Under the pieces are notes generated by a model, which did not search any database, was not told the origin of the DNA, and saw nothing but the letters and a program-made list of their open reading frames with translations. DNA of 64,000 nucleotides from Phycisphaerae bacterium (GTDB taxonomy: Bacteria; Planctomycetota; Phycisphaerae; FEN-1346; JAACEH01): NCBI GenBank assembly GCA_012729015.1, contig JAAYDY010000113.1, positions 12,206-76,205 on the forward strand, written 5' to 3'. Each line of letters opens with the position of its first letter. Within the stretch, counting starts at the first letter, position 1. Positions 38,587-63,467 of this stretch are shown here, one piece after another. Both the position numbers and the translations under genes were made by a program.

Positions 38587-38589
38587 ATT

Positions 38590-42227: not shown

Positions 42228-42692
42228 ATGCGGATGACGACCTTCAGTGCCGACCAGATTCTTGACGCCCTCCGGCAGGAAGCCGACGCCTGCCGCGAGC
42301 TGGCCGAGCTGCGCGGCGAGCAGCGGCGGCTCATCGACGCCGACCGCGCCGAGGACCTGCTGGCCGTCCTGGCCCGGAAGCAGAAGGCCATCAACCGCGT
42401 CGGGAGCCTCGAAGAACTGCTCAAGCCCGTCAAGGCGGAGTGGAACGTGCGGCGGCAGGAACTGCCGCCCGTGGCGCGCGTCGAGATCGCCGAGGCGTTC
42501 CGCCGGGTCCGCGACCTGCTCGAAGCGCTGATCGCCCGTGAGACCGAGGATGCCGAGGCGCTGGCCCAGCGCAAGGACGCGGCCGAACGCGAACTGGCCA
42601 CGTTCGACGGCAAACGCCGGATTCAGAACGCCTATCGGGCGCCCGACGTCCGGGGCGGCGATGGTTCGCTCCTGAACCACCTGGAAGGCTGA
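42228..42692 (+). CDS. FlgN-like coiled-coil protein (putative flagellar export chaperone)
   Basis: A 154-aa helical protein with an ILDALRQEADACRELAELRGEQRRLI FlgN-like pattern lies immediately upstream of the flagellar two-component pair and the flgB operon. Confidence 0.35.
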   Translation: MRMTTFSADQILDALRQEADACRELAELRGEQRRLIDADRAEDLLAVLARKQKAINRVGSLEELLKPVKAEWNVRRQELPPVARVEIAEAFRRVRDLLEALIARETEDAEALAQRKDAAERELATFDGKRRIQNAYRAPDVRGGDGSLLNHLEG

Positions 42693-42699
42693 GCGAGAC

Positions 42700-43635
42700 G
42701 TGAACGACGGAGGCAGTCCCATGACTTCTCAGGCCGTGAACGCTGCTGCGAAAACTGAGCCGTCGCGCGACGACCTGCTCGAAATCCTGCTGCGCTACAA
42801 CGAGGCCACCGAGCGGCTGCGCTCCAGCCACGAAGCCCTCAAGGGTGAGGTCGTCCGTCTGCGCGGCGAGTTGGAGGAGAAGAACCGCGAACTGCGCCGG
42901 CGACAGCGGCTCGCGATGCTCGGCGAAATGGCTGCCGGCATGGCCCACGAGATACGCAATCCCCTCGGCGGCATCATGCTCTGCGCCGACATGCTTCGCG
43001 ACGACATGGCCGGCAGTCGCGAGGCCCTGGACATCCTCGTGCGGCTCGAGAGCGGCGTCCGCATCCTCAACCGCATCGTCGAGGACATGCTGCTGTTCAC
43101 GCGCGACCTCCACGTGGATGCCCAGCCCTGGCTTCTCGCCGACCTGGTCCGCTCGGCCCTCGACCTGGCTTCGCACGATGTCCGGCGCAGCAGCCTCCGC
43201 GTCCTCATCAGCGACTGGGAACTCGACCATTGGGTTCGGGCCGACGGTTCGCTGATCATTCGTTCGCTGTTGAACCTGATTCTCAACGCCGCCCAGGCCG
43301 GTGAAACGCGGCCCGACGCCTCGCTGCGCATCACCGCGGCCCCCGGACACGAGTCCAATCAGGTCGCCATCATCCTGGAAGACACCTGCGGCGGCATCGC
43401 CGCCGAGGACCTCGACAAGATCTTCGATCCGTTCTTCACCCGCCGCGACAAGGGGACCGGCCTCGGGCTGGCGATTGTTCATCGGACCATGGAGGCCCAC
43501 GGCGGGCAGATTGCCGCACAGAACAACCGCGTCGGCGGCGCCACGTTCACTCTCACGCTGCCGGAGGCCCAACGTCCCGATGCCCCGGCGGCCGGTGATG
43601 CGGGCTCGACCCACGCGGTCTGCAAGGAGCGCTGA
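42700..43635 (+). CDS. Cytoplasmic sensor histidine kinase (HisKA + HATPase_c), FlrB/NtrB-like
   Basis: The H-box is MAHEIRNPLGG. The N, G1 and G2 boxes are LNLILNAAQA, DTCGGIAAEDLDKIFDPFFT and GTGLGLAIV. There are no TM segments. Confidence 0.85.
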   Translation: MNDGGSPMTSQAVNAAAKTEPSRDDLLEILLRYNEATERLRSSHEALKGEVVRLRGELEEKNRELRRRQRLAMLGEMAAGMAHEIRNPLGGIMLCADMLRDDMAGSREALDILVRLESGVRILNRIVEDMLLFTRDLHVDAQPWLLADLVRSALDLASHDVRRSSLRVLISDWELDHWVRADGSLIIRSLLNLILNAAQAGETRPDASLRITAAPGHESNQVAIILEDTCGGIAAEDLDKIFDPFFTRRDKGTGLGLAIVHRTMEAHGGQIAAQNNRVGGATFTLTLPEAQRPDAPAAGDAGSTHAVCKER

Positions 43636-43638: not shown

Positions 43639-45036
<1,398 letters not shown>

Positions 45037-45103
45037 ACTCCGGGCGGGCTTTCCGGCCGGGGTCGGCGTGGGACGGGGAAGAGGTTTGGTATGGAATATA
45101 AGG

Positions 45104-45118
45104 TGTTTTTGAAAAACA
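45104..45118 (+). promoter_or_regulatory. Palindrome TGTTTTT-G-AAAAACA (candidate enhancer/IHF-like site) upstream of the sigma-54 promoter
   Basis: Read directly from the sequence, about 45 bp upstream of the -24 element. Confidence 0.3.
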
Positions 45119-45163
45119 GGTTAGAGGTGTCACGAGCCGGGTACGAGCGTTCCATGCCGGCTC

Positions 45164-45178
45164 TGGTACGGACTTTGC
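45164..45178 (+). promoter_or_regulatory. Sigma-54 (RpoN) promoter candidate TGGTAC-GGAC-TTTGC about 40 nt upstream of flgB
   Basis: GG and GC are separated by exactly 10 nt, as in the consensus TGGCAC-N5-TTGC. It sits between the sigma-54 activator gene and flgB. Confidence 0.5.
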
Positions 45179-45219
45179 GAAATGCCCACGTGAGGTCCTG
45201 CGCTTAGGAGGGCGCGACG

Positions 45220-45660
45220 GTGGCGAGTTGGTTGGCAGGCATTCTCAACGGCGGTCGGTTGGCTGTGGCCCAGCAGGTGGCCCAGTTCGCCGAGGCCCGC
45301 CACGGCATCCTGGCCGACAACATCGCCAACATCGACACGCCCTACTACAAGGTCCGCGATCTGCCGGTGGCCGAGTTCCAGGGCATGCTCGGCAAGGCCA
45401 TCCGCGAGGCCCGCGACGCGGGCGGCCCGCTGAGGCTCGAAAGCAGCGCGAACATCGAGGTCAGTCGTCGTGGCGACAGCCTGGAGTTCAAGCCCGTCGA
45501 GCGCGAGGAGGCCAACCTCCTGTTCCACGACGGGAACAACCGAAGCATCGAGCAGGAAATGAGCGAACTGGCCAAGAACGCGTTGATGCACCGCACGGCG
45601 ATCGAGATTCTCCGCGGGCAGTTCAACGCCCTGGAAACGGCCATCCGAGGCAAGCTCTAG
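45220..45660 (+). CDS. flgB: Flagellar basal-body rod protein FlgB
   Basis: It has the FlgB N-terminal motif ADNIANIDTPYYK. Confidence 0.85.
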   Translation: MASWLAGILNGGRLAVAQQVAQFAEARHGILADNIANIDTPYYKVRDLPVAEFQGMLGKAIREARDAGGPLRLESSANIEVSRRGDSLEFKPVEREEANLLFHDGNNRSIEQEMSELAKNALMHRTAIEILRGQFNALETAIRGKL

Positions 45661-45669: not shown

Positions 45670-46071
45670 ATGTTCCAGTCCTTCGACATCAGCACCAGCG
45701 GCATGCAGGCCCAGCGGGTTCGCATGACGGCCATCGCCTCGAACCTGGCCAACGTCAACACGACGCGCAATGCCGCGGGCGAGTTGCAGCCGTATCGGCG
45801 GCTCATCACTCTGTTCGAGCAGGGCGCCCAGGGCCCCGACACCCCCGGCGTCCGCGTGTCGGGCATCGTCCAGCAGCGGGGGCCCATGCGACGTGTCGAG
45901 GCGCCCCATCATCCGGACGCCGGACCCGACGGCTACGTCTCGTTTCCGAACGTGGACACGGCCACCGAGATGATTGACGCACTGGAGGCATCGAGGGCCT
46001 TCGAGGCGAACGTGACGGCCTTCGAGGCCACCAAGAGCATGTTGACCAACGCCTTGAGGATTCTGGCGTGA
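45670..46071 (+). CDS. flgC: Flagellar basal-body rod protein FlgC
   Basis: MFQSFDISTSGMQAQRVRMTAIASNLANVNTTR and the C-terminal EMIDALEASRAFEANV are present. Confidence 0.9.
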   Translation: MFQSFDISTSGMQAQRVRMTAIASNLANVNTTRNAAGELQPYRRLITLFEQGAQGPDTPGVRVSGIVQQRGPMRRVEAPHHPDAGPDGYVSFPNVDTATEMIDALEASRAFEANVTAFEATKSMLTNALRILA

Positions 46072-46134
46072 TAACGTCTGACGCCGGCCGCGCGCGGAGC
46101 GCGACGACCGGACGTCGCGACAGGGAAGTCTGAC

Positions 46135-46449
46135 ATGGCGAACGAAATCAACGGGAATTTCCAGATCGGGCAGCGGCTCCTCCAGGACGCCCAGAAGCTC
46201 GGCCCCCGGCCGCCGGCGGCCGAGGGCACGCCCTCGTTCAAGGACATGCTCGTCAAGAACCTGGAAGAGGTGCAGCGGCTTCAGCAGGACGCCGACGTGG
46301 CCTTCGAGCGGTTGGCCACCGGCCAGACCAGCAACGTCACCGAGGTCCTGTCGGCCGTGCAGAAAGCCGACCTGGCCTTCAAGACCCTGATGCAGATGCG
46401 CAACAAGCTGGTCGACGCCTGGGACGAAATTCGCAACATGCGCATCTGA
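46135..46449 (+). CDS. fliE: Flagellar hook-basal body protein FliE
   Basis: The 104-aa protein has the FliE C-terminal helix EVLSAVQKADLAFKTLMQMRNKLVDAW. Confidence 0.85.
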   Translation: MANEINGNFQIGQRLLQDAQKLGPRPPAAEGTPSFKDMLVKNLEEVQRLQQDADVAFERLATGQTSNVTEVLSAVQKADLAFKTLMQMRNKLVDAWDEIRNMRI

Positions 46450-46517
46450 CCAAGTGGGTGGCAGTCCGGGCCGCGGAGTGCGGCCGGGAAACGTAGAGAG
46501 AACCGGGAGACGGCACG

Positions 46518-48125
46518 ATGGAGTTCCTGCAACAGAAAATCGACCAGCTCAAGGCCACGTGGCTCGGCCTTACTCGCAGCGGCCGCCTGGCCCTGGTCAT
46601 GGTCGTTCTGCTCGTGGCAGCCGTTCTGGCCATTGTCGCCCAGAACACCGGAACGCCCGACCTGTCGCCGCTGCCGGTCCAGTTCGCCGCCGACGAGATC
46701 GCCCCGGCCGTCGATGTCCTCAGGGCCAAGCAGGTCCGGCACGAGGTCCGCGGCAACCAGATCCTTGTTCCCGCGGACATGCGGCCCATGGCTCTCGGCA
46801 TGCTCGCCACCAGCGAGGCCATCTCCAGCGACAGCGACATCGACGTCGAGCAACTGTTCAGCGGCGGCAGCATGTGGACGCCCAACGAGGAACGCGACCG
46901 CCAGTGGAAGTTCTTCCGCAAACGCGAACTCGAGAAGTGGATCGGCGGTCTGCCGGGCGTCCGCCGCGCCAGCGTGAACATCAACTACGGCACCGCCGGG
47001 ACCATCGGCCGGGTGCCGCACGGCGTCTCGGCTTCCGTGGCCGTCGATACCGGCCAGGCCCAGCCGCTGGCCTACGTCACCGCGGCGACGGTGGCCCACT
47101 GGGTCGCCCGCGCCACCAACGGTCTCACGGTCGATAAGGTCACGGTCATCGACCGGACCCACGGACGCCACTTCAACATCGACAACGACGGCGCCGCGGC
47201 GTCCAGCGCCGTGCTCCGCGTGCAGCAGGAGTACGAGAAGCACTACGAGGAATGTCTCCGCAACGGTCTCGCCCCGTTCATCCCCGGCGTGGTCGTCGGC
47301 GTCAGCGTCACCGTCAGCGCCCACCCCGAGAAGATCGTCAAGCACGAGCCCGATAAGGACAAGATCATCACCGGCAGCATGAAGGAGCGCTCGCGCCAGG
47401 TGACCGGCGGCTCCGGCGGCGGCGAGCCCGGCGTCGTCAGCAACACCGGCGCCGGCGTCAGCGGCGCTACCTCCGCGGTCGGCTCCGAGAAGTCCTCCGA
47501 AGAGAATCTCGGCGACCCGCTCGACTGGGGGCGCCTCGACACGGTCATCGACAAGGCCCCCGGCGCCCTGGAGCAGGTCAAGGCCACCGTCAGTGTGCCG
47601 CGCAGCTACTTCGTCAACATCCTCCAGATGCGCGGCGAGGCCGCCGACGACAAGGTCGACGAGGCCAAGCTGACGGCCGTCATGACGACCGAGCTCGACA
47701 AGGTCCGCAAGCAGGCCGAGACCCTGATCGGGTCCGTCGCCGGCTCCACGGTCAGCGTGGACTGGTTCTACGACGTGGCCGATGTGGCCGACGACGCGGC
47801 CGAAGGCTCCGCCGGCAGCGGCCTTCTTCAGACCGCCATGCAGTATGGGCCCTCGGTGGCCCTGGGCGTCCTGGCGATGCTGGCCCTCCTGATGGTCTAC
47901 AAGGTCATCAGCAAGCTTCAGCCCGTCCAGGTGCCCGCCGAGGCCAGGACGGCCGAAGAGCACGTCGGCGAGGCCGGTCTGACGCTGGACAGCATCCTCG
48001 AAGGCGTCGAGCTCGAAGCCGAAACGATCCGCACCAGCAAGATGCAGGATCAGATCAGCAACATGATCCGCGAGGATCCCGAAGGGGTCGCGGGTCTGAT
48101 GAAGCGCTGGATTGCCAAGGAGTAG
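46518..48125 (+). CDS. fliF: Flagellar MS-ring protein FliF
   Basis: The 535-aa protein has an N-terminal TM, the YscJ/FliF domain, a second TM near the C-terminus and a FliG-binding tail. Confidence 0.9.
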   Translation: MEFLQQKIDQLKATWLGLTRSGRLALVMVVLLVAAVLAIVAQNTGTPDLSPLPVQFAADEIAPAVDVLRAKQVRHEVRGNQILVPADMRPMALGMLATSEAISSDSDIDVEQLFSGGSMWTPNEERDRQWKFFRKRELEKWIGGLPGVRRASVNINYGTAGTIGRVPHGVSASVAVDTGQAQPLAYVTAATVAHWVARATNGLTVDKVTVIDRTHGRHFNIDNDGAAASSAVLRVQQEYEKHYEECLRNGLAPFIPGVVVGVSVTVSAHPEKIVKHEPDKDKIITGSMKERSRQVTGGSGGGEPGVVSNTGAGVSGATSAVGSEKSSEENLGDPLDWGRLDTVIDKAPGALEQVKATVSVPRSYFVNILQMRGEAADDKVDEAKLTAVMTTELDKVRKQAETLIGSVAGSTVSVDWFYDVADVADDAAEGSAGSGLLQTAMQYGPSVALGVLAMLALLMVYKVISKLQPVQVPAEARTAEEHVGEAGLTLDSILEGVELEAETIRTSKMQDQISNMIREDPEGVAGLMKRWIAKE

Positions 48126-48128
48126 ACG

Positions 48129-49142
48129 GTGGCGACGGAAACAACCTACGGCAATGCTCGCAAGGCGGCGATCCTCCTGGTCAGCATCGAGGAGGATCTG
48201 GCCGCGCTCATCATGTCCAAGATGGACAAGGAGCAGATCGAGGTCGTCACGCGCGAGATCGCCAAGCTCCGCAACATCAGCCAGAAAGAGCGCGACACGG
48301 TGGTCGAGGAGTTCTACCACGTGGCCCTGGCTCGCGGCGTCATGGACTCGGGCGGCCCGAACGCCGCGCGCAGCATCCTCGAGAAGTCCTTCTCCAAGGA
48401 AGAGGCCGGCGCGATCATGCAGTCGATCGAGAAGTCCATGCAGGCCACTCCCTTTGCGTTCCTCCAGCGGGCCGAGAGCGGCAACCTCCTGACCTTCATC
48501 CAGAGCGAGCACCCGCAGACCATCGCCCTGATCCTGTCGCACCTGCCGAGCAACCAGGCGGCCGAGATCCTCAGCGGCCTGCCGTCGAAGACGCAGATCG
48601 AGGTCGTCCGGCGCGTGGCCAACATGGAACAGACCAGCCCCGAGGTCATTGCCCAGGTCGAGAAGGCCCTCGAGAGCCGCCTCAGCGCCATCGTGTCCCA
48701 GAAGCTCGAAAAGGCCGGCGGCATCGAGGCCGTCGCCGAGATCCTCAACCTCGCCGACCGCGCCACCGAGAAGAGCATCATGGAAAGCCTCGACGAGGAC
48801 GACCCCGAACTGGTCGAGCAGATACGGCGCCTGATGTTCGTCTTCGAGGACATCATCCTCGTCAACGACAAGGGCATCCAGGCCGTCCTCAAGGAGATCG
48901 AGAACGAGACCCTCGCCCTTGCTCTCAAGACCGCCAGCGAGGAGCTCAAGGAGAAGATCTTCAAGAATATGTCCGAACGCGCCGTGACGCTCATCAAGGA
49001 AGACATGCAGTACATGGGCCCGGTCCGCGTCGCCGACGTCGAGGCCGCCCAGCAGAAGATTGTCGACGTGGTCCGCCGCCTCGAGGACGCCGGCGAAATC
49101 ATCATCTCCGGCCGCGGCGGAGAGGAGGAACTCGTTGTCTAG
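48129..49142 (+). CDS. fliG: Flagellar motor switch protein FliG
   Basis: The 337-aa protein matches FliG along its whole length, with the sequence EQTSPEVIAQVEKALESRL. Confidence 0.9.
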   Translation: MATETTYGNARKAAILLVSIEEDLAALIMSKMDKEQIEVVTREIAKLRNISQKERDTVVEEFYHVALARGVMDSGGPNAARSILEKSFSKEEAGAIMQSIEKSMQATPFAFLQRAESGNLLTFIQSEHPQTIALILSHLPSNQAAEILSGLPSKTQIEVVRRVANMEQTSPEVIAQVEKALESRLSAIVSQKLEKAGGIEAVAEILNLADRATEKSIMESLDEDDPELVEQIRRLMFVFEDIILVNDKGIQAVLKEIENETLALALKTASEELKEKIFKNMSERAVTLIKEDMQYMGPVRVADVEAAQQKIVDVVRRLEDAGEIIISGRGGEEELVV

Positions 49143-49896
49143 CGTCGCCACCCATCGTGCCGCCGTCGAGCAGGAGGTCCAGGGACCGGTTCCCCTGAAC
49201 CTGCGCGACGTCGAGCAGCTTGCCGGCGAGGCCGTCGAGCGGGCTCGCGCCAAGGCGCGCGAAATCCTCACCGAAGCCGTCGCCCGGGCCAAAGAGATGG
49301 AGCAGGTGGCCACGGCTCGCGGCGAAAAGGCCGGCTACGACGCCGGGTTCGCCAAGGGCCACGAGGCCGGGAAGGTCGAGGCCCAGGCCGCTGAAACCCG
49401 ACGCATCCAGGACGCTACCGCCACCCTCAGCGAGGCCCTCCTGGAAGTCCTCCGCGGCGTCGAAGCCCATCGCAACGAACTGCTGGCCGAGGCCCGACAG
49501 GACCTGCTGTTGCTGGCCATCGCCATGGCCGAACGCATCTGCCGCGTCAAGCTGGCCGCCGGCGACGAGCACGTGCGGCCCCTGCTCGAGGAGGTCATCG
49601 AGCACGTCGGCACGAGTGGCCGCATGGTTCTCCGCATTCACCCGCTCGACGCCGACGCCGCCAGGGCGTTTCTCGGCACGCTCCATGCCGCCATGGCCGG
49701 CGACGACGCCTCCCCGGTCACGCTCGTCCCCGACGAGAGCGTCACCCGCGGCGGCTGCGTGGCCGAACGCGTCAACGGCAAGGTCGATGCCCAGGTCGAA
49801 ACCCAGATTCAACGTATCGCCGCCGAGTTGATCGGCGTCGAGTGTCCGCTCGCCGCCGGTTCGGCGGCCGCCGAGGCCACAGGAGGCAACCCATGA
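49135..49896 (+). CDS. fliH: Flagellar assembly protein FliH
   Basis: The FliH-like sequence EALLEVLRGVEAHRNELLAEARQDLLLLAIAMAERICRVKL is present. The start is uncertain: the track start at 49060 overlaps fliG by 83 nt, so the TTG at 49135 (8-nt overlap) is preferred. The stop overlaps the fliI ATG (ATGA). Confidence 0.7.
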   Translation: MSSVATHRAAVEQEVQGPVPLNLRDVEQLAGEAVERARAKAREILTEAVARAKEMEQVATARGEKAGYDAGFAKGHEAGKVEAQAAETRRIQDATATLSEALLEVLRGVEAHRNELLAEARQDLLLLAIAMAERICRVKLAAGDEHVRPLLEEVIEHVGTSGRMVLRIHPLDADAARAFLGTLHAAMAGDDASPVTLVPDESVTRGGCVAERVNGKVDAQVETQIQRIAAELIGVECPLAAGSAAAEATGGNP

Positions 49897-51272
49897 GCAG
49901 CCTCCTGGCCAACCTCGCCCAGGACGTCCGTCGCATCAGCCCGCTCGGCATCGAGGGCCGCGTGCTCGAAGTGGTCGGCCTGTCGATTATCGTCGAGCAC
50001 TTCCCCGTGGCCGTCGGCAGCCGCTGCACGGTCCGCGCCCGCGCGACGCAGCACGAGGTCCGCTGCGAGGTGGTCGGCTTCCGCGACGACCGGACACTGC
50101 TGATGACCCTGGACGAAATGGACGGCGTCAGCCGCGGCGACGTGGTCCGTCTGACCAGCCGCCGCCAGACCATCGGCGTCGGCGACGAAATGCTCGGTCG
50201 CGTGATCAACGGTCTCGGCGAGGCGATCGACGGCCGCGGCCCGATCCGCTGCACCCTCCGCCGCCACATCGAGGCCCGCGCCCTGGGCGCTCTCAGCCGC
50301 CAGCGCATCGACCAGCCCATCGGCACGGGCATCCGCGCCATCGACGCGTGCATGACCTGCGGCCGCGGGCAGAGGGTCGGCATCTTCTCCGGCGCCGGAG
50401 TCGGCAAGAGCGTCCTGCTGGGCATGATGGCCCGCTACACCAGCGCGGCCGTCAACGTCATCTGCCTGGCCGGCGAACGCGGACGCGAAGTCCGCGACTT
50501 CCTCGAACGCGACCTCGGCCCCGACGGTCTCCGCAAGTCCGTCGTGGTCGTCTCCACCAACGACGAGCCGCCCCTGATGAAGATCAAGGCCGGTCTCGTC
50601 GCCCATGCCCTGGCCGAGCACTTCCGCGACGAGGGCCGCGACGTGCTCCTGGTGCTCGACAGCGTGACGCGGCTGGCCATGGCCCAGCGGCAGGTCGGCC
50701 TCAGCGCCGGCGAGCCGCCCACCACCAAGGGCTATCCGCCGAGCGTCTTCTCCCTGCTGCCCCGGCTGCTCGAACGCGCCGGCAGGGGCGCCCAGGGCAG
50801 CATCACCGGTTTCTACACCATCCTCGTCGAAGGCGACGACATGAGCGACCCCGTGGCCGACGCCGTCCGAAGCATTCTCGACGGCCACCTCGTCCTCAGC
50901 CGCCGACTGGCCAATCAGGGCCACTACCCGGCCATCGACGTCACCCAGAGCATCAGCCGCCTCATGACCGACCTGGTCGAGCCGAAGCACCTGGAGGCGT
51001 CTCGCTCGCTGGTCCGGCTGTTGGCCGCTTACAACGAGGTCGAGGACCTCGTCAACATCGGTGCCTACAGCCCCGGGTCCAATCCCGAGGTGGACCTGGC
51101 CGTGGCGTCGCGACAGGACGTGCTCGGCTTCCTGCGGCAGGACATCCAGGAGGCCGTGCGGTACGACGAGGCGCGCAGCGGGCTCGACGCCCTCACGCGG
51201 AAACTGGAGCAGTCTCGCAAAACGATTCTCGCCAGGCGAACGGCGCAGGCCGCCGTCGCGGCGAAGGCATAG
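49893..51272 (+). CDS. fliI: Flagellum-specific ATP synthase FliI
   Basis: The start is set at ATG 49893, preceded by AGGAGG. Walker A is GAGVGKS, with a T3SS ATPase fold throughout. Confidence 0.9.
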   Translation: MSSLLANLAQDVRRISPLGIEGRVLEVVGLSIIVEHFPVAVGSRCTVRARATQHEVRCEVVGFRDDRTLLMTLDEMDGVSRGDVVRLTSRRQTIGVGDEMLGRVINGLGEAIDGRGPIRCTLRRHIEARALGALSRQRIDQPIGTGIRAIDACMTCGRGQRVGIFSGAGVGKSVLLGMMARYTSAAVNVICLAGERGREVRDFLERDLGPDGLRKSVVVVSTNDEPPLMKIKAGLVAHALAEHFRDEGRDVLLVLDSVTRLAMAQRQVGLSAGEPPTTKGYPPSVFSLLPRLLERAGRGAQGSITGFYTILVEGDDMSDPVADAVRSILDGHLVLSRRLANQGHYPAIDVTQSISRLMTDLVEPKHLEASRSLVRLLAAYNEVEDLVNIGAYSPGSNPEVDLAVASRQDVLGFLRQDIQEAVRYDEARSGLDALTRKLEQSRKTILARRTAQAAVAAKA

Positions 51273-51293
51273 TCGCGAAAGGGCACAGGTCGT

Positions 51294-51746
51294 ATGGCCA
51301 AGTTTCGTCTCCAACCGGTCCTGACGCTGAGGAAGTACCGCGAGCAGTTGCGGCAGCGGGACCTGGCCGTCGCCCTCGGCGAAGAGCAGCGACGCAAGGA
51401 TGCCGTGTTGCGTCTGGCCGACCTGCGGCGCGAGCAGACCGACGTCTTCCGCGGCCAGCAGCAGACCGGTCCGCTCGACATGCAGGCCGTCGTCGCCCAG
51501 CGTCAGTACCTGGGCCTCCTCGGCCGCGAGATCGGCTTCCGCCTGCGCGGCGTCGCCCAGGCCGAGCGCGAGACGGCCCGCCGACGCGGTGACATGACCG
51601 ATGCCATGCAGGATCGCAAGGCGGTCGAGATTCTCGAAGACCGGTTTCGTCAGCGGCTCCGCCGCGACGAGGACCGACGTGAGATGGCTGAGCTTGACGA
51701 GGTGAGTCTGCGGATCGTCGCCGCGGGCCCCAAAGTGGATGCGTGA
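51294..51746 (+). CDS. fliJ: Flagellar export protein FliJ
   Basis: MAKFRLQPVLTLRKYREQLRQRDLAVAL matches the typical FliJ N-terminus in a coiled-coil 150-aa protein. Confidence 0.75.
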   Translation: MAKFRLQPVLTLRKYREQLRQRDLAVALGEEQRRKDAVLRLADLRREQTDVFRGQQQTGPLDMQAVVAQRQYLGLLGREIGFRLRGVAQAERETARRRGDMTDAMQDRKAVEILEDRFRQRLRRDEDRREMAELDEVSLRIVAAGPKVDA

Positions 51747-52425
51747 GGAGCCGACGATGGGTCGTCATCACGGTGGCGCCGTCATCAACATCCTGGCCAC
51801 GCTGATGATGCTGGAGATTGCCGCGGCGGCGGCTTTCGCCGGCTACGTCATCCTCACCCAGCGCATCAGCCGCGACCAGTTGTGGCTCGCCCGCAAAGTG
51901 TACCAGGGCGACGTCACCTCCGAGACCCTGGCCGAGGCCGAGCGGTGGCGCGACCACCTGGTCCAGCAGGCCGCCAGGGAGAAGGAGGCCGTCTCGGGCG
52001 ACGCCGCCGACCGAAAGCTCCTGGTCACGCAGATGCAGACCGAGGCCTCGCGCCTGGGATTGCAGTGGCAGCTCGATCAGCTCAAGACGCGCGAGGATCT
52101 GCTCGCCGTGAAGATGCAGGAACTCGAACAGAAACGCCAGACCCTGGAGGCGCTCGAAAAACGCGTGGACGAGAAGCAGCGCCAGCTTCAGACCGCCTCG
52201 GGCAACGAGGCGTTTCAGAAGATGGCGAGAATCCTCGACAGCATGAAACCGGCCGAGCTCAAGCGGATGCTGTTAGGGCTGGACGACGGGACGGTCGTGG
52301 ATTTCCTCAGGAACTACGACCCGCGCAAGGCCGGCAAGCTGTACACCGAATTCCAGACGCCGCAGGAACTCGAAACGTACCGCCGCTGGATGGAGATGCT
52401 CAAGAGCGGCCAGGTCGCCATGTGA
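51739..52425 (+). CDS. Flagellar-operon protein with MgtE_N-like domain (YlxF/MotE-like)
   Basis: An N-terminal TM and coiled-coil are followed by the C-terminal ILDSMKPAELKRMLLGLDDGTVVDFL MgtE_N-like segment. It sits after fliJ, as ylxF does in Bacillus. Confidence 0.45.
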   Translation: MREEPTMGRHHGGAVINILATLMMLEIAAAAAFAGYVILTQRISRDQLWLARKVYQGDVTSETLAEAERWRDHLVQQAAREKEAVSGDAADRKLLVTQMQTEASRLGLQWQLDQLKTREDLLAVKMQELEQKRQTLEALEKRVDEKQRQLQTASGNEAFQKMARILDSMKPAELKRMLLGLDDGTVVDFLRNYDPRKAGKLYTEFQTPQELETYRRWMEMLKSGQVAM

Positions 52426-52452
52426 CGGGCTGCAAACGGAAGGAAGGCAACC

Positions 52453-53994
52453 ATGCTCGTGGAACGCAGTACGCTGCACCAAAGCGCGGTCGGATCGCTG
52501 TTCTCGCTGCTCAACAAGAGCGACAGCGCCGACGCCCCCAGCTTCCAGCAGCACTTCACCGAGAGCGTCGGCGCCCTGTCGCGACGCGACCAGACTCCCC
52601 AGCAACGGTCGCAGGAATCGCTCGATCAGGATGTAACGGCCTCGCGGCCGCGCACCGAGCCGCGACGCAAGGACGACCCCGCCGCACGGCAGGACGCTCC
52701 CGCGACAACGGCGTCCGCGCCGCCCGCTGCGCCTGTCGAAGAGCCGCAGGCGACCGAGCCCGCCGCCCCCGCGGACACCGCCGACAGAGAGGTCGTCGCC
52801 CGCGAATCGGCGCCGGCCGAACGGGCCACGGCCGCCAGGGATTCCGCCGCCGCCCCTGTGTCCGACGAATCTTCGCAGCCTGCGGAGGCCGTCGCGACGC
52901 CCTCCCGGACACGCATCAAGGTCGCCATGCTGAGGGCGCTTGCCGCCGGGGGCAGGGGGCTGCCAGGCCCGCTGACCGCTGTTGATGCAATCGCTCCCGA
53001 CGAAGCGGGACAGGTCGATCAGCCCAGCCAGGGCAAGGCTCTTGCCGCCGTTCGTCCGGTGTCGGCGTCTGCCGATTCCCTGCCGACGGATGCCGGCGCA
53101 GCGGCCGACCAGGCGCAACTTCAGTCCGCGGCCTCTGGGGCTGCGGCGACGCAGACCGATGACCGCCGGCCGGTGCGCCGAGCCGCCGCTTCATCCTTCA
53201 AGCAGGCCGCGTCCCAGGCCGCGTCCTCTTCGTCCGCGGCCGCCGGCGTTCGGTCCACCGCTTCCGAACAGCAGACCGGTGACGCTGCCGCCACATCGCC
53301 CAAGACATCCCAGGCCGCCTCCGGCGCCTCCCAGCCGAGGCTGCCTGTCGTGCCCCAGGCCCACGTCGTCAATGCCGACGTGGTCAGCCTTCAGGTCGTG
53401 TCGCAGCCGGCAGTCGAGTCGGTCGCCACGGGCGGCTCCGCAGCTTCCGAGACGCCCGCCGTCGGCAAGGTGGCCGCTGACGCCTCTCCGATGCGGTCCG
53501 CCGGCGTCAAGCCGGCCGCCGACGCTTCCCGGGCTACCGCGTCCGACGCCGAGGAACAGGTCGAACGGATCGTCCACGTCATGCGCGCCAGCATCAGCCG
53601 CGGAGGCAGCCGGGTGAACATGCGGCTCGATCCGCCCGAACTCGGCCAACTCCGCATTCAGATGCAGATTCGCAACGGCGAGATGACCGCCCGATTCGAG
53701 ACGCAGACCGAGACCGCACGCAACTGGGTCTACAGCCAGCTCGGGTCGCTCCGCGAATCCCTGGCGGGTCAGAACATCCGACTCGTCCAGGCCTCCGTCG
53801 AGAGCCGCCACGACGGCAATGAAGCCGCCGGCGGCCAGTCCGGCGGCGCGGGCAGCTTCACCGGCGGCCACGAGACCGGCGGCCAGACGCAGCAGCACAA
53901 CCAGACGCAGCACCAGGACGCGGCTCCCGAGAGCGAGGTCCTGCGATGGACCGCGCCGGTTGCCGAGGACAACGAAGTCAACGTGGTGGTGTGA
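52453..53994 (+). CDS. fliK: Flagellar hook-length control protein FliK
   Basis: A long Ala/Ser/Pro-rich N-terminal region is followed by a C-terminal Flg_hook domain (RLDPPELGQLRIQMQIRNGEMTARFETQTETARNWV). Confidence 0.75.
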   Translation: MLVERSTLHQSAVGSLFSLLNKSDSADAPSFQQHFTESVGALSRRDQTPQQRSQESLDQDVTASRPRTEPRRKDDPAARQDAPATTASAPPAAPVEEPQATEPAAPADTADREVVARESAPAERATAARDSAAAPVSDESSQPAEAVATPSRTRIKVAMLRALAAGGRGLPGPLTAVDAIAPDEAGQVDQPSQGKALAAVRPVSASADSLPTDAGAAADQAQLQSAASGAAATQTDDRRPVRRAAASSFKQAASQAASSSSAAAGVRSTASEQQTGDAAATSPKTSQAASGASQPRLPVVPQAHVVNADVVSLQVVSQPAVESVATGGSAASETPAVGKVAADASPMRSAGVKPAADASRATASDAEEQVERIVHVMRASISRGGSRVNMRLDPPELGQLRIQMQIRNGEMTARFETQTETARNWVYSQLGSLRESLAGQNIRLVQASVESRHDGNEAAGGQSGGAGSFTGGHETGGQTQQHNQTQHQDAAPESEVLRWTAPVAEDNEVNVVV

Positions 53995-54042
53995 CCGAAA
54001 CCGGCGTCGCCCCCGGGCGTCGCCCACGAAGGAGAATGCACA

Positions 54043-54492
54043 ATGGCGGACAGTGTCGGCGCGACCGCAAGTGTCGGAACCACCACCTATACGGGAAAGA
54101 CCCGCGGGTTGGACGACATGTCGGGCATGGACTTCCTGAAACTGCTCATCACGCAGCTCAGCAATCAGGATCCCATGGAGCCCATGAAGAATCAGGAACT
54201 GCTCGAACAGCTCTCGACTATTCGCAGCCTGGAATCGAACATCACCATGAGCGAGAAGTTCGAGGACCTGGTCACGGCCAACCAGAAGATGGCGGCGCAG
54301 AACCAGTTGTCCAGCGCCACGCTCCTGATGGGCCAGCGCATCACCGGCCTCAGCACCGACAACAAGCTCGTCGAGGGCTACGTCGAACGCGTGGTCGTCG
54401 CCTCCTCGGGGGTCCGCGTGAAGGTGGGCGGCTACGAGATTCCGATGGAGAACATACGTCAGGTCGAATGGCCCGACGAGGCGCAGGGTTGA
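54043..54492 (+). CDS. flgD: Flagellar hook assembly/capping protein FlgD
   Basis: DFLKLLITQLSNQDPMEPM is the FlgD signature. Confidence 0.85.
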   Translation: MADSVGATASVGTTTYTGKTRGLDDMSGMDFLKLLITQLSNQDPMEPMKNQELLEQLSTIRSLESNITMSEKFEDLVTANQKMAAQNQLSSATLLMGQRITGLSTDNKLVEGYVERVVVASSGVRVKVGGYEIPMENIRQVEWPDEAQG

Positions 54493-54691
54493 TCGTCACA
54501 GAAACCGGCCGCGGGCCGGACGGCGTGTCGCCGTCGCCGCGGCCTGAGAGCGACTCGAGCGGGACGGCTCGGGTCGAGGCGGGCAGGACGCCGCAGCAGG
54601 CAGACAGACAAACCGGGCCGGACGCCAGCGGGCGACGGCCCACGCCAAGCGGAACGCACGCCGCTTCGCTTCGCGGAAAGGGAGGATCACC

Positions 54692-56392
54692 ATGGGTCTG
54701 ACGTCAACACTCTATGCCGGTCTCAGCGGGCTGGACTCCAACGGCATGCAGTTCGAAGTCATCGGCAACAACATCGCCAACGTCAACACGACCGGGTTCA
54801 AGGCGCGTCGCGTACTCTTCCAGAGCCAGTTCAGCCGCACCCTCAGCATCGGTTCCGGCGCCAGCAGCGACTTCGGCGGCACCAACCCCATGCAGATCGG
54901 CCTCGGCAGCCAGGTCGCCCAGGTCGATACCGACTTCTCCATGGGCTCGGTCGAGGTCACCGGCATCAACTCCGACATGGCCATCGAAGGCTCCGGCTTC
55001 TTCATCCTCAACAGCCCCGACGGCCTCGTCTACACACGCAACGGGTCGTTCAGCGTCAACAACCAGGGCTACCTCGTAGCCGCCAACGGCGAGTTCGTCC
55101 AGGGCTACGGCGTGGACGCCGACTTCAACGTCGTTCCCGGCTCGCTGGTGAACCTGACGATTCCCCTGGGCTTCCTCACCGTCGCACGCCCGAGCACCGA
55201 AGCCGTCATCCAGGGCAACCTGAACGCCACCGGTGAGATCGCCAGCCAGGGCTCGCTGCTGACGTCCGCCCAACTGGAAGACCTAGCCGGCAACCCCGTC
55301 ACCGACGACACCCTCCTGACGGAAGTCTGCCTGGCCAGCAACCCCGGCGTGGCCCTGTTCTCCGCCGGCGACGTCATCAGCTTCGCCGGCGTCAAGGGCG
55401 GCAGAACGCTCGAAACCGCCACCTTCACTGTGGATGCCACCAGCCGCCTTGGCGACTCGGCCCTGGTTCCCGAGGCCAATCGCTTCAGCGTCTTCGTGCA
55501 GCAGGCCCTCGGCATCGACACCGACGGGACGCTCCCGACCACCGGCGGCGTCAGCATCGTGGGCAGTTGCCTTCAGATTGCCGGCAACTCCGGCGCCCAG
55601 AATGACATCGACCTGTCCACCGAGTCCATCCGCATCAACGGCGTCGACACGCCGTTCACCTGGGCCGACAGCCAGGCCGCCAACGGCGAAAGCGTCTACA
55701 CCTCCTTCACCGTCTACGATTCGCTCGGCAACCCGATGACCATGGACGTGACCTTCGTCCTCGAGAACGCCAACGCCTCGGGCACCACCTGGCGTTTCTA
55801 CATGGCCAGCCAGGACGACACCGACATTGACCTCGTGCTCGGCAACGGCACCATCCAGTTCGACAACCAGGGCCAGTACGTGACCTCGACGGGCCTGGAG
55901 GCCGTCTTCGACCGCGACGGCACCGGCGCCGTGACGCCGCAGTCGGTCTTCCTGGACGTCACCACGATGACCTCCCTGTCGGCCGAGCGCGACGGTTCGC
56001 AGATCGCCCTGTCGAGCCAGGACGGCGTGCCCATCGGCACCCTCGACGGTTTCGGCGTCGGCGGCGACGGCATTATCACCGGCACCTTCACCAACGGTCT
56101 GACGCGGCCCATGGGGCAGGTGGCCCTGGCCACGTTCGCCAACCCCAAGGGTCTGCTGGACGGCGGGGCGAGCACCTTCGTCGAGGGGCCCAACTCGGGC
56201 GTCGCCGTCGTCACCACGCCCCAGTCGATGAGCGCCGGCAGTATCCAGAGCGGCTCCCTGGAACTGTCGAACGTGGACCTCTCGAAGGAGTTCGTCAACC
56301 TGATCACGACGTCAACGGGTTTCTCGGCCAACAGCCGCGTGATTTCCACCGCCGACGAGATGATGCGGGAAATCCTTCAGATGGTCCGATAA
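54692..56392 (+). CDS. flgE: Flagellar hook protein FlgE
   Basis: The N-terminus GLTSTLYAGLSGLDSNGMQFEVIGNNIANVNTTGFK is the Flg_bb_rod motif. The C-terminus LELSNVDLSKEFVNLITTSTGFSANSRVISTADEMM is also conserved. Confidence 0.9.
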   Translation: MGLTSTLYAGLSGLDSNGMQFEVIGNNIANVNTTGFKARRVLFQSQFSRTLSIGSGASSDFGGTNPMQIGLGSQVAQVDTDFSMGSVEVTGINSDMAIEGSGFFILNSPDGLVYTRNGSFSVNNQGYLVAANGEFVQGYGVDADFNVVPGSLVNLTIPLGFLTVARPSTEAVIQGNLNATGEIASQGSLLTSAQLEDLAGNPVTDDTLLTEVCLASNPGVALFSAGDVISFAGVKGGRTLETATFTVDATSRLGDSALVPEANRFSVFVQQALGIDTDGTLPTTGGVSIVGSCLQIAGNSGAQNDIDLSTESIRINGVDTPFTWADSQAANGESVYTSFTVYDSLGNPMTMDVTFVLENANASGTTWRFYMASQDDTDIDLVLGNGTIQFDNQGQYVTSTGLEAVFDRDGTGAVTPQSVFLDVTTMTSLSAERDGSQIALSSQDGVPIGTLDGFGVGGDGIITGTFTNGLTRPMGQVALATFANPKGLLDGGASTFVEGPNSGVAVVTTPQSMSAGSIQSGSLELSNVDLSKEFVNLITTSTGFSANSRVISTADEMMREILQMVR

Positions 56393-56427
56393 AAAGGCGG
56401 ATTTCTGGACAAAAGGAAAGGCGCTGT

Positions 56428-56454
56428 TAAAATACGACGTTTTATGGCCGGAGA
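56428..56454 (+). promoter_or_regulatory. Sigma-28 (FliA)-type promoter candidate TAAA-N15-GCCGGAGA upstream of flbD-motAB
   Basis: It matches TAAA-N15-GCCGATAA at 4/4 and 6/8 positions, within an unusually AT-rich 120-bp spacer. Confidence 0.35.
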
Positions 56455-56518: not shown

Positions 56519-56710
56519 ATGATTCGGGTGACTCGGCTCGGCGGAAAGGAGCTGGTCGTCAACGCCGAGATGATCCGTTTCGTCGAGGCGACGCCCGATA
56601 CGATCCTGAGCCTGACCAACGGCGAGAAGATCATCGTGCAGGAAAGCGTCGACGAGGTCATTCGCCGCTGTATCGAGTATGGCCGGTCGCTGAGATCGTT
56701 GGCCGATTAG
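56519..56710 (+). CDS. flbD: Flagellar protein FlbD (SwrD/YlzI-like)
   Basis: The start is set at MIRVTRLGGKELVVNAEMIRFVEATPDTILSLTNGEKIIVQESVDEV, a near-consensus FlbD. Confidence 0.8.
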   Translation: MIRVTRLGGKELVVNAEMIRFVEATPDTILSLTNGEKIIVQESVDEVIRRCIEYGRSLRSLAD

Positions 56711-56723
56711 GAACGGGAAGCAC

Positions 56724-57503
56724 ATGGACATCGCCACACTGATTGGGTTGATTGCCGGGATCATTCTGATCGCCTGGGCCGTTGTCAGCGGTGCCGGCGA
56801 CAAGGTCGGCGCGTTCGTCGACACGCCGAGCATCGCCATGGTCATCGGCGGCACGGCAGCCGTCACGCTCATCAGCTTTCCCCTGAAGGCGGTCCTCAGC
56901 GTCGGCAAGGTGACCAAGAACGCGTTTCTGCACAAGGCTCAGAGTCCGCAGAAGCTCATCGAGGATTTCGTTTCCTATGCCGAGGTCGCCCGGCGCGACG
57001 GCATCCTGAGTCTGGAGAGTGTGACCAAGGACATCAAGGACGAGTTCGTCGTCAAGGGCATCCAGATGGCCATTGACGGTACGGACCCGGAGTTGATCGA
57101 GCAGATTCTCAACAGCGAGCTGGACGGCATCGCCGAGCGGCACAGCACCGGCAAGAGCATCTTCGACTGCATGGGCAAGTACGCTCCGGCCTTCGGCATG
57201 ATCGGCACCCTCGTCGGGCTCGTCATCATGCTTCAGAACATGGAGGACCCGTCGAGCATCGGCTCCGGTATGGCGGTCGCCCTGTTGACGACGCTCTACG
57301 GCGCCGTGGTGGCCAACCTCATCTGTCTGCCCCTGGCCGACAAGCTGGCCCGCCGGTCCAGCGAGGAACTCCTTCTGAAGGAAATCGTCATCCGCGGCGT
57401 CATGTCGATTCAGTCCGGCGACAACCCGCGTGTGGTCGAACAGAAGCTCAAGACGTACCTGCCGCCGTCGATGCGCATGGTGGAAGAGGTCGAGGCGGCG
57501 TAG
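56724..57503 (+). CDS. motA: Flagellar stator protein MotA
   Basis: It has four TM segments and the conserved MotA/TolQ/ExbB C-terminal region (GMIGTLVGLVIMLQNM). Confidence 0.9.
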   Translation: MDIATLIGLIAGIILIAWAVVSGAGDKVGAFVDTPSIAMVIGGTAAVTLISFPLKAVLSVGKVTKNAFLHKAQSPQKLIEDFVSYAEVARRDGILSLESVTKDIKDEFVVKGIQMAIDGTDPELIEQILNSELDGIAERHSTGKSIFDCMGKYAPAFGMIGTLVGLVIMLQNMEDPSSIGSGMAVALLTTLYGAVVANLICLPLADKLARRSSEELLLKEIVIRGVMSIQSGDNPRVVEQKLKTYLPPSMRMVEEVEAA

Positions 57504-57522
57504 GGGCCGACGGGAAACGACG

Positions 57523-58317
57523 ATGGCCAGAAAAGCCAAAGGTTCAGGAGGCGAAGGCGGCGGCGGGGGATGCCCCGAGTACATGCTCACGTACGGGGAC
57601 ATGATGAGCCTGCTGCTGTGCTTCTTCGTCATCATCGTCAGCCTCAGCCAGATCAAGGAGGAAGAGAAGTTCCGCGCGGTGATGGAAAGCCTGAAGAAGG
57701 CGTTCGGCTACAATATGGGCCGCAACGCCATCCCCGAGCCGCCGAGTATGCTCAACCCGAGCATGAACCTGGTGGACGTGATCAAGCAGGAAATCAACCG
57801 GATGCGGACCCAGACGGCCAGCAACCAGAAGACCAAGAGCCCGGAGAGCCAGATCGGCAAGAGCACCTCCGTCCGCAACATCCGCGACGGGCTGATGATG
57901 ACCATCGGCGGGCTGTCGCTGTTCGAGGAGGGCAAGGCGGACCTGCTTCCCGAGGCCCAGGAGGAACTCAAGCAGGTGGCCGAGATCATCGTCGGCTACC
58001 GCAACAAGGTGCTGATCCGGGGGCATGCGAGCCGCGCGCCGCTGCCGGCCGGATCGCCGTTCAAGAACCAGATGGAGTTGTCGTATGCCAGGAGTCTGGC
58101 GGTCATGCAGTTTCTGATCGACCAGAAAGTCAAGCCGGAGCGTCTCAACGTCGAGGCCTGCGGCGCCAACGAACCGCTCAAGGTTCAGGTGTTCAACGAG
58201 GAGGGCCTGGCCAGCAGCCGGCGCGTCGAGATCATCGTCAAGGACACGATGGTCGAAGACTACGAAGGCGACCAGGAACCCGCGAAGTCTCCACCACCGG
58301 GAGGGACTGATGGCTGA
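57523..58317 (+). CDS. motB: Flagellar stator protein MotB (OmpA-like C-terminus)
   Basis: The start is set at MARKAKGSGG. It has the MotB TM with conserved Asp (YGDMMSLLLCFFVIIV) and an OmpA-like peptidoglycan-binding domain. Confidence 0.85.
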   Translation: MARKAKGSGGEGGGGGCPEYMLTYGDMMSLLLCFFVIIVSLSQIKEEEKFRAVMESLKKAFGYNMGRNAIPEPPSMLNPSMNLVDVIKQEINRMRTQTASNQKTKSPESQIGKSTSVRNIRDGLMMTIGGLSLFEEGKADLLPEAQEELKQVAEIIVGYRNKVLIRGHASRAPLPAGSPFKNQMELSYARSLAVMQFLIDQKVKPERLNVEACGANEPLKVQVFNEEGLASSRRVEIIVKDTMVEDYEGDQEPAKSPPPGGTDG

Positions 58318-58864
58318 CGAGAAACAGGCTGCCGAGCAGACGCCTGAGGGCGAAGGCGCCCCGAAGAAGAAGTTCAACGTGAAGGCGATTGTCCTGATCG
58401 GCGGCTTTGTTGCCCTTCAGGCCGTGCTGACGCTGGTCATCGTCTGGGCCGTGCGCGGCGCCAGTGGCGCTGGGCCACAGCCGGCCGAGGCCGCCGAGAC
58501 CGCTCAGACCGCACCGACCGCCGACGACCTGGTGGTCGTCCCGGCCCTGCCGAACGACAGTGAGAACAAGGTCGTGGCCGTCAACGCGCAGCGCGGACGC
58601 CTGGTCTACTGGGCGCTGAAAGTGTCGCTTCGCGTCCCCAAGGGGCAGGAGGAGACCCTCAAGGCCCAGTTGATCGCCAACGAGGATCTTATCCGCGACA
58701 AGATCAGCACCGTCGTCGGCAAGTGCGACCCGGTGATTCTCGAGCAGGAAGCCGACCATGCCACGCTGAAGCGGCAGATTCGCTTCGCCCTCAGCAGCGT
58801 CCTGGGCAAGGGCGCTGTCAGCGAAGTGGTCATTCCGCAGTGCATTCCGCAGGTGGTGGACTAG
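58310..58864 (+). CDS. fliL: Flagellar basal-body-associated protein FliL
   Basis: A single TM is followed by the conserved FliL periplasmic domain (VVAVNAQRGRLVYWALKVSLRV). Confidence 0.8.
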   Translation: MADEKQAAEQTPEGEGAPKKKFNVKAIVLIGGFVALQAVLTLVIVWAVRGASGAGPQPAEAAETAQTAPTADDLVVVPALPNDSENKVVAVNAQRGRLVYWALKVSLRVPKGQEETLKAQLIANEDLIRDKISTVVGKCDPVILEQEADHATLKRQIRFALSSVLGKGAVSEVVIPQCIPQVVD

Positions 58865-58888
58865 GAACCGCGAGCCGAGGAACCAGTC

Positions 58889-59395: not shown

Positions 59396-59446
59396 CGTGA
59401 AGGTGTCCGTGGGCCGGGTTGCGGAGCGACCCGAAAGGACAGTGGG

Positions 59447-60262: not shown

Positions 60263-60278
60263 AATCCAGGAGCACAGC

Positions 60279-61088: not shown

Positions 61089-61179
61089 CGCCGGCCGCGC
61101 CGGCGGCGGACCGCGGCGCGGCGACGGCGAAGACGGCAGGGCAGGGCACGCACGGCACAGAACAGAGGACTGCGACACA

Positions 61180-61437: not shown

Positions 61438-61456
61438 CGCAAGGCAAGACGCACCT

Positions 61457-62239: not shown

Positions 62240-62304
62240 ACGCCGCCGACGTGCGGCAACCTGTGGCGCGGGCCCGACGGCCCTCGCGATGATCGGACGA
62301 AACG

Positions 62305-63387: not shown

Positions 63388-63467
63388 CCCGGCGGTCCGT
63401 CTCACGCGCGTTCGATGGTGAACGCATCCCGCAAGGACGCGGGCGGCTCTGACGAGGAAGCTTCCGA

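Follow-up and report, generated by a model that had tools for sequence, protein, structure and literature searches.

Control of flgB promoters by a two-component system together with sigma-54 is established in Vibrio, Pseudomonas and Campylobacter (PMC7064773). Here, we analysed a locus of this kind in 64,000 nucleotides of DNA from a Phycisphaerae bacterium (contig JAAYDY010000113.1), hereafter the window, in which the genes of a histidine kinase and a sigma-54 activator are followed, after a gap of 183 bp, by flgB and further flagellar genes. The original prediction for this DNA had placed a sigma-54 promoter in the gap, together with an AT-rich palindrome as candidate enhancer. We consider it probable that the gap is the control region of a sigma-54-dependent flagellar promoter with composite upstream DNA.

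The closest described systems are FlrB/FlrC of Vibrio cholerae, FleS/FleR of Pseudomonas aeruginosa and FlgS/FlgR of Campylobacter and Helicobacter, in which a flagellar kinase is paired with an NtrC-type sigma-54 activator. The locus in the window shares with them this pairing, the linkage of the regulator genes to the flagellar cluster and a -24/-12 element directly upstream of flgB (described systems: PMC7064773), and its kinase is cytoplasmic, like FlgS. It also resembles Caulobacter crescentus FlbD, a sigma-54 activator encoded in or next to the flagellar cluster. However, FliX controls FlbD, which lacks a cognate kinase (PMC3930126), whereas a kinase is co-encoded here. As far as the titles cited in PMC3096577 and the review PMC3930126 indicate, Caulobacter combines dyad enhancers with an intervening AT-rich architectural site.

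A sigma-54-type promoter ahead of flgB

The candidate promoter, TGGTACGGACTTTGC, lies at 45164-45178. Direct reading places GG at 45165-66 and GC at 45177-78 with exactly 10 nt between them, the spacing originally claimed for it, and the motif ends 41 nt ahead of the GTG start codon of flgB at 45220, where about 40 nt had been given. Taken one nucleotide further (TGGTACGGACTTTGCG, 45164..45179, + strand, read as TGGTACG-GACT-TTGCG with the -24 GG and the -12 GC as above), it matches the extended consensus TGGCAC-N5-TTGCW except for T instead of C at position 4 and G instead of W after TTGC. The GG-N10-GC spacing alone is uninformative in this GC-rich DNA (window GC about 67%), since it occurs 1430 times in the window against 1370 expected. 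TGGYAC-N5-TTGC has one exact match in the 64 kb against 0.28 expected, and that sole match is the site at 45164-45178; a single exact extended match in 128 kb of strand was seen in 25 of 100 shuffles. We also scanned the window and 80 related loci for -24/-12 sites with a weight matrix of our own, which is simple and approximate. The 45164 site scored highest in the window, with 15.2 bits compared with 13.7 and 13.6 for the next two, which fall within open reading frames (ORFs) taken as genes (a Tex-like gene at 26918-29212 and a protease-like ORF at 37364-38446). Beyond it, the scan of the window gave no credible sigma-54 promoter with which an enhancer might be shared.

The 80 loci, all from Planctomycetota, came from an FlgB profile search with one genome per species and were scanned on both strands (604 kb). 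TGGYAY-N5-TTGC had 33 exact matches in them, 29 of which fell within the 170-nt zone from 30 to 200 nt upstream of flgB, on the coding strand; this zone represents about 1% of the search space. By weight matrix, the upstream site exceeded the 99th percentile of 4301 control windows in 45 of the 76 testable loci. The gene order kinase-activator-flgB-flgC-fliE-fliF was kept in most of the 80, and the promoter was mostly present where the activator was at least about 48% identical to that of the window. This positional conservation across the phylum argues that the 45164 element is a real sigma-54-type promoter for flgB, as first proposed, to which sigma-54 would bind.

The window belongs to a clade of 12 sequences (the window, L001, L111, L113, L114, L081-L085, L002 and L116), with FlgB identities to the window from 93% down to 58%; a metagenome scan with FlgB alone gave only five useful close relatives. 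Within this clade, the -24/-12 block is among the few conserved islands, the remaining intergenic DNA being unalignable, and TGG and the start codon are 55-62 nt apart throughout. One clade record, L001 (CAZCOA010000056.1), is titled as an Anaerolineaceae metagenome-assembled genome, and a further record, L003 (CAYGXT010000485.1), as one of Myxococcaceae. FlgB of L001 is 92% and that of L003 62% identical to the FlgB of the window. L001 has the same gene order and neighbour proteins that are 91-95% identical, and L003 holds only a partial flgB at a contig end. Because the window FlgB has its closest named relatives in Planctomycetota, both contigs have probably been mis-binned or mislabelled.

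No -24/-12 site was found upstream of flgB in the Planctomycetaceae/Gimesia/Planctopirus group (L011, L015, L016, L018, L025, L027, L031, L033, L050, L069, L073-L075, L079 and L080), where the upstream AAA+ regulator shares only 29-36% identity with that of the window. The logic of control may be different in this group. In loci of this type, the regulator match often begins well inside the protein, and TGGAACGCAAnyTGAT recurs about 210 nt upstream of flgB, inside the regulator coding range matched by tblastn. Six Phycisphaerales loci (L020, L042, L052, L060, L061 and L063) likewise have no recognisable -24/-12 element. They keep the kinase and the activator (50-53% identical), with a gap of about 91-97 nt before flgB, and some of them carry GCGCA-type dyads at -40 to -88 from flgB.

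Transcription from sigma-54 promoters usually begins 11-13 nt past the -12 GC, and this geometry predicts a start at 45189..45191 (+ strand). A Shine-Dalgarno sequence, AGGAGG, can be read directly at 45206..45211 (+ strand), 8 nt ahead of the GTG start. The 5' leader between them contains TGCGC (45199..45203, + strand), which is found in 12/12 clade members at +35 to +39 (±1 nt) from the T of TGG, about 21 nt past the -12 GC and at about +10 from the predicted start. TGCGC is a half-site of the GCGCA-N5-TGCGC enhancers of sister lineages described below. Vibrio FlrC binds its enhancers downstream of the start site (PMC6504787), whereas the candidate dyads here lie upstream. Given the shared half-site and the analogy with FlrC, a downstream contact of an activator or repressor at TGCGC is conceivable. 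A conserved structure in the flgB leader, for which a CsrA-type GGA hairpin was considered, was rejected (consensus fold of -0.29 kcal/mol, no covariation), and known RNA families gave only chance-level matches in 44800-45500, far below gathering scores.

Inverted repeats upstream of the promoter

To compare upstream DNA, all loci were aligned on the promoter. Phycisphaerae-type loci carry tandem 15-bp dyads of the form GCGCA-N5-TGCGC, and Pirellulales loci carry CGGCA-N5-TGCCG. The tandem copies are 18-23 bp apart, with starts that in most cases lie about 88 and 69 bp ahead of TGG and in some Pirellulales about 137-180 bp ahead of it. GCGCA dyads are enriched 14-fold upstream of flgB (1.48 compared with 0.11 per kb). 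The type of dyad goes with the helix-turn-helix (HTH) of the adjacent activator: among L004-L078, activators with GLKLK accompany GCGCA only in 18 loci and CGGCA only in 1, and those with SGKLR accompany CGGCA only in 17 loci and GCGCA only in none. Such an association is expected if the adjacent activator binds the dyads.

The dyads can also extend into the activator gene. In L037, L051, L055, L059, L066, L070 and L078, they lie inside its 3' coding end, 125-240 nt upstream of flgB. The in-ORF dyads of Pirellulales translate as RQxLP and SAxSAG within otherwise variable tails, and the activator ORFs of L038 and L046 end just ahead of the same dyads. Since the tails vary and the stop elsewhere precedes the dyads, these appear to be constrained as DNA and not as peptide. 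The cis-element appears to shape the tail of the activator protein in Pirellulales.

In the clade of the window, the corresponding place at the end of the activator gene has the form CGGCAGAAsTTGCCG-N6-GCGCAATAA. The window itself contains a distal dyad, GCGAAGAAGTTGCCG (45007..45021), a decayed copy of CGGCAGAAGTTGCCG within the last codons of the activator (K-K-L-P), and a proximal dyad remnant, GCGCAATAAACTCCG (45028..45042), across its CAA-TAA stop. These decayed tandem 15-bp dyads, at about -176 and -155 from the predicted start, fall mostly outside the interval 45037-45219 that the original prediction covered. L084, L085 and L116 each have a perfect distal dyad, L113, L114 and L081 have one with a single mismatch, and L002 has a full GCGCAATAAATGCCC at the proximal dyad. 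GCGCAATAA is invariant in 11/11 clade members compared, 10 of which keep it 136-138 bp from TGG even though the DNA between is highly variable. Two low-GC outgroups (L117 and L118), whose promoter element is TGGCAT-N5-TTGC, carry the clean palindromes GGGCAATAATTGCCG and GCGCAAAAATTGCCG across the activator stop, about 118-141 bp upstream of that element.

The codons involved are uncommon in the genes of the window, where TTG makes up 6.4% of leucine codons, CAA 7.9% of glutamine codons and TAA 17% of stops, and all three are invariant in 11/11. The invariance of these rare codons against the codon bias argues for selection on the DNA at the activator end and, together with the fixed distance to the promoter, indicates that the stop-codon elements are still under selection. 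By homology with the sister lineages, the stop-codon dyads are the best candidates for the ancestral enhancer.

The palindrome singled out in the original prediction lies between these dyads and the promoter. TGTTTTTGAAAAACA (45104-45118) is indeed perfect, with 7-bp arms around a single central G, and ends 45 bp ahead of the promoter motif within an AT-rich patch (45090-45125, 28% GC). It is the sole palindrome in the 64 kb with 7-bp arms and at least 70% AT, where block-shuffled sequence gives an expectation of 0.03. It forms the core of a 27-bp dyad, ATAAG-N17-GTTAG (45098..45124), an inverted repeat with arms at 45099-45110 and 45112-45123. The centre of this central dyad, 45111, is at -53 from the T of TGG and about -79 from the predicted start. 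The clade consensus is G[TC]AA[GC]-N17-[GCA]TTA[CGT], with an interior that is T-rich on the left and A-rich on the right. Complementarity was scored around each possible centre between -150 and +60 in eight sequences of the clade, and -53 was the best of 420 symmetry centres (z = 4.7, and 4.0 without the window sequence). L116 has the same dyad in the same place; position and symmetry are kept in 12/12 clade members, and GC content dips clade-wide to 0.39, centred at -52. TAAS-N17-STTA occurs once in the window against 0.08 expected, and no further copies of the dyad were found there. The outer half-sites hold most of the conserved positions. The inner perfect AT palindrome is specific to the window, its place being taken by AGTTTGTGAATAATG in the 93%-identical relative and by GC-containing sequence in more distant ones. 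The pattern marks the central dyad as a symmetric element at the DNA level that is probably bound by protein.

Several other identities of the palindrome were tried and rejected. Against a hairpin in RNA or a terminator ending the activator transcript, the palindrome folds with only -1.7 kcal/mol (z = -0.12), it is not self-complementary in relatives, and the gap has no terminator-like site. A NifA-like TGT-N10-ACA reading fails on the spacing, which is TGT-N9-ACA in the window and is not conserved in relatives. The place of the element would suit a site for integration host factor (IHF), but the best match to the Escherichia coli-type consensus (WATCAANNNNTTR, with an AT-rich 5' flank) in 45037-45163 has three mismatches at nine specified positions, and the element is symmetric.

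Other repeats occur close by. A 9-nt inverted repeat, GGTATGGAA / TTCCATGCC (45088-45096 / 45150-45158, 89% complementary, 53 nt between the arms), brackets the central dyad; L114 has ACGGAA / TTCCGT near these places, and elsewhere its conservation is weak by eye. Directly adjoining the -24 element in L117 (2407-2432) and L118 (2378-2402) is a palindrome, (CC)TGTTAAAACA(GG), which is similar to the TGTT...AACA ends of the window palindrome and lies about 40 bp closer to the promoter.

For the central dyad, we lean tentatively towards a clade-specific operator that acts architecturally or through a second regulator, with a second site for the activator being almost as likely. The proposal that the palindrome is an enhancer thus held in part: it is the core of a conserved dyad, but its inner sequence is peculiar to the window, better enhancer candidates are found farther upstream, and it is probably neither the sole nor the principal enhancer. 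Carried through, the proposal would make the palindrome or 27-bp dyad itself the enhancer of the adjacent activator and the stop-codon dyads vestigial. We regard this as doubtful, though the strongest of the alternatives. It stays alive because the left half-site of the dyad (-66 to -62 from TGG) overlaps the proximal enhancer dyad of most sister lineages, and because the clade activators have a distinct recognition region, LGISVRTLGMKIKAY, which together with a conserved extra tail, A-x-VGR, would fit a changed DNA specificity. The constant position and symmetry of the central dyad throughout the clade and the decay of the stop-codon dyads in the window also speak for it. However, the half-site centres of the central dyad are 22 bp apart, compared with 10 bp in every clear dyad at orthologous promoters; NtrC-type sites likewise have half-site centres 10 bp apart. 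The central dyad is moreover single, whereas the enhancers of relatives are tandem, and L002 has 13 bp inserted between it and the promoter. The stop-codon elements, for their part, keep both their promoter distance and their rare codons.

Our preferred arrangement, with ancestral enhancers at the stop codon and an operator in the centre, has several points weighing against it. The distal dyad of the window departs from CGGCA-N5-TGCCG at three positions, and only 3/5 of TGCCG is kept in the right half of the proximal dyad; the stop-codon dyads could be vestigial, and their conservation could come partly from the C-terminal peptide LPVxAQ. The association between HTH and dyad type is confounded by shared ancestry. 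In most sister lineages, where the tandem dyads begin about 88 and 69 bp ahead of TGG, the proximal enhancer dyad is found where the clade has its central dyad, which speaks for the original enhancer proposal. The E. coli IHF consensus is unmatched in the region, the best match having the three mismatches given above, which lowers the claim of an E. coli-type IHF site but not that of an architectural site. Finally, because the six Phycisphaerales loci and the Planctomycetaceae group lack a -24/-12 site, the whole arrangement is not universal in the phylum.

The resulting layout resembles that of glnAp2, nifH and Pu: two dyads precede the -24 element by about 130-150 bp, an AT-rich element lies about midway, and the -24/-12 core fits the consensus. 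At nifH, Pu and the Caulobacter flagellar promoters, the bend introduced by IHF lies between enhancer and promoter. The locus in the window departs from NtrC- and NifA-type promoters in its half-sites, which are not TGCACC-N5-GGTGCA or TGT-N10-ACA, in its symmetric central element, the IHF consensus being asymmetric, and in the overlap of the distal sites with the activator coding sequence.

Regulators, proposed mechanism and extent of the transcript

The activator gene is the last of a flgN-like/kinase/activator unit. Its first gene (42228..42692, + strand) encodes an FlgN-like protein (Pfam FlgN, E = 4e-8) and is syntenic in many related loci; a gene for a TPR protein (Pfam) precedes it in the co-directional run. 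The second (42700..43635, + strand) encodes a soluble histidine kinase with a coiled-coil N-terminus and the Pfam domains HisKA (H-box HEIRNPL) and HATPase_c. No transmembrane segment was found in the kinase, where the maximum 19-residue hydropathy is 1.08. The third (43639..45036, + strand) encodes a sigma-54 enhancer-binding response regulator with Pfam REC, AAA+ (Sigma54_activat, E = 1e-70) and Fis-type HTH (HTH_8) domains. Its GAFTGA motif, at 44284, is the only one in the window, and its relatives in the PDB are NtrC1, ZraR, LuxO, FleQ and FlrC.

Family models place neither protein among the described flagellar regulators. The best NCBIfam matches of the kinase are AtoS and ZraS, with FlgS at 87 bits against a cutoff of 600. 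The activator scores 363 bits with FlbD, which is one of its better matches, and 334 with FlgR, both against a cutoff of 750, and AtoC, ZraR and NtrC score higher. Neither protein reaches any NCBIfam equivalog cutoff, and no FlrC or FleR model is among the 25 NCBIfam matches listed. Orthology to FlgS/FlgR is therefore unsupported. FlgR also has no DNA-binding domain, whereas the activator here has an HTH. By sequence, the activator is best described as a generic NtrC/AtoC/ZraR-type protein and the kinase as a generic AtoS/ZraS-type one. The pair had been called FlrB/FlrC-like, which is borne out by its architecture and flagellar context but not by family membership, all curated cutoffs being missed.

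No rpoN gene (RpoN box) was found in the 64-kb window. We infer its presence in the genome from the GAFTGA activator, the conserved -24/-12 element and reports in other planctomycetes: it is RB6491 in Rhodopirellula baltica (PMC2754498), and a general statement reports it for planctomycetes (PMC3372290).

The observed motifs, conservation, synteny and protein domains lead us to infer a scheme for sigma-54 binding, phosphotransfer, the pairing of protein and dyads, the start site and the extent of the transcript. RNA polymerase with sigma-54 would bind TGGTAC-N5-TTGC (45164-45178) as a closed complex. The adjacent soluble kinase would phosphorylate the adjacent NtrC-type regulator, which would then oligomerise on the upstream DNA and open the promoter by means of ATP and its GAFTGA loop. 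Transcription would begin near 45190 and pass through flgB, flgC, fliE and fliF, reaching at least flgE. The stop-codon dyads, as counterparts of the tandem enhancers of sister lineages, would be the ancestral activator sites. The central 27-bp dyad, between them and the promoter, would serve as a clade-specific operator, with a lean towards an architectural or co-regulator role.

The gene that this promoter precedes, flgB (45220..45660, + strand), matches the NCBIfam equivalog TIGR01396 with 73 bits against a cutoff of 59. Its product has 221 homologues; the named ones are called FlgB, and those with taxon names are Planctomycetes or Phycisphaerae, which places the window in a planctomycete. 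It is followed on the + strand by flgC, fliE, fliF, fliG, (fliH), fliI, fliJ, an ORF of unknown function, fliK, flgD and flgE (45670..56392, Pfam). From flgB to flgE, neither a terminator-like site on the + strand nor a second sigma-54 site was found, and sigma-54 control of these genes is likely. After flgE comes a gap of 126 nt (56393-56518) that is AT-richer and contains a sigma-70-like promoter candidate, TGGACA-16-TAAAAT (56406..56433, + strand), which matches at 10/12 positions and has TG before the -10 hexamer (extended -10). Beyond it lie flbD, motA, motB, a fliL-like gene, fliN, fliO, fliP, (fliQ), fliR, flhB and the 5' part of flhA (56519..64000, + strand, from Pfam and translations). 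The whole cluster is on the + strand up to flhA, which runs off the end of the window.

RpoN-dependent control had been predicted for a single operon from flgB to flhA. The sigma-70-like promoter candidate after flgE weakens that claim: control of flgB to flgE is the likely part, while flbD to flhA could, but need not, be expressed from the same sigma-54 promoter. At least two transcription units may therefore make up the flagellar cluster. Upstream of the regulators, the interval 37000-39000 has a low GC content (0.55-0.60 compared with about 0.67) and includes the protease-like ORF already mentioned (37364-38446), which is ClpP-like and SDH-type; this interval could be acquired DNA.

Transcription of flgB could also come mainly from read-through of the flgN-like/kinase/activator unit, or from another type of promoter, with the -24/-12 element contributing little. 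All the genes concerned are on one strand, and no intrinsic terminator separates the activator gene from flgB, which suits read-through. The gap was, however, also searched for a sigma-70-like promoter, and none was found. Dozens of species, moreover, keep the -24/-12 element in this place although the rest of their intergenic DNA cannot be aligned. Read-through could thus provide basal expression, yet it leaves this conservation unexplained, and we consider it an improbable main source of flgB transcripts. That both motifs are chance matches without function, a thought prompted by the ubiquity of GG-N10-GC in GC-rich DNA and by the extended match in a quarter of the shuffles, is refuted to the point of being negligible by the comparative data (positional conservation across 80 loci, a unique palindrome and the same symmetry centre without the window sequence).

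Comparison with known flagellar switches and significance

In the models for Vibrio, Pseudomonas and Campylobacter, the kinase senses an assembled complex of MS ring, rotor and export gate. The promoter in the window differs from those of FlrBC, FleSR and FlgSR in that it also precedes fliF, fliG and fliI and not only rod and hook genes. That it thus lies ahead of the genes for the MS ring, the rotor and the export ATPase argues against the checkpoint logic of the model systems applying unchanged, and a pre-assembled basal body is probably not what the kinase here responds to. No master regulator of the FlrA/FleQ type is visible in the window.

Planctomycetes generally have a dimorphic life cycle with a flagellated swarmer stage, as Caulobacter does. 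In the literature searched, the control of flagellar genes in Planctomycetota is covered only by in-silico surveys. Studholme and Dixon reportedly studied the enhancer-binding proteins of Pirellula in silico in 2004. A matrix-based survey from 2025 described sigma-54 control of motility genes in Planctomycetia (PMC12316311).

Taken jointly, our observations would describe an ancient Planctomycetota module of kinase, activator and flgB promoter, in which half-sites and activators co-evolve (GCGCA with GLKLK, CGGCA with SGKLR) and the enhancer often sits in the 3' end or stop codon of the activator gene. In the clade of the window, this enhancer would have decayed, and a new 27-bp operator at about -79 would have arisen along with TGCGC at about +10. 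In this full form, the scenario is unlikely. If it were true, peptide motifs such as RQxLP would arise from an enhancer in the coding end, which would also hold the rare TTG, CAA and TAA codons in place. A second regulator input would also be implied, possibly coupling flagellar synthesis to the swarmer-cell cycle.

The feature itself is an ordinary flagellar switch, real and well supported, and existing ideas are not overturned by it. Modestly new are the conservation of the module across the phylum, the apparent co-variation of half-sites with the HTH, the candidate enhancer within the coding end of the activator gene, and the clade-specific central operator with TGCGC in the leader. The locus provides a concrete promoter with candidate operators and a cognate two-component pair, in an arrangement that is widespread in the phylum, and an enhancer overlapping the coding end of its own activator would be an example of dual coding constraints.

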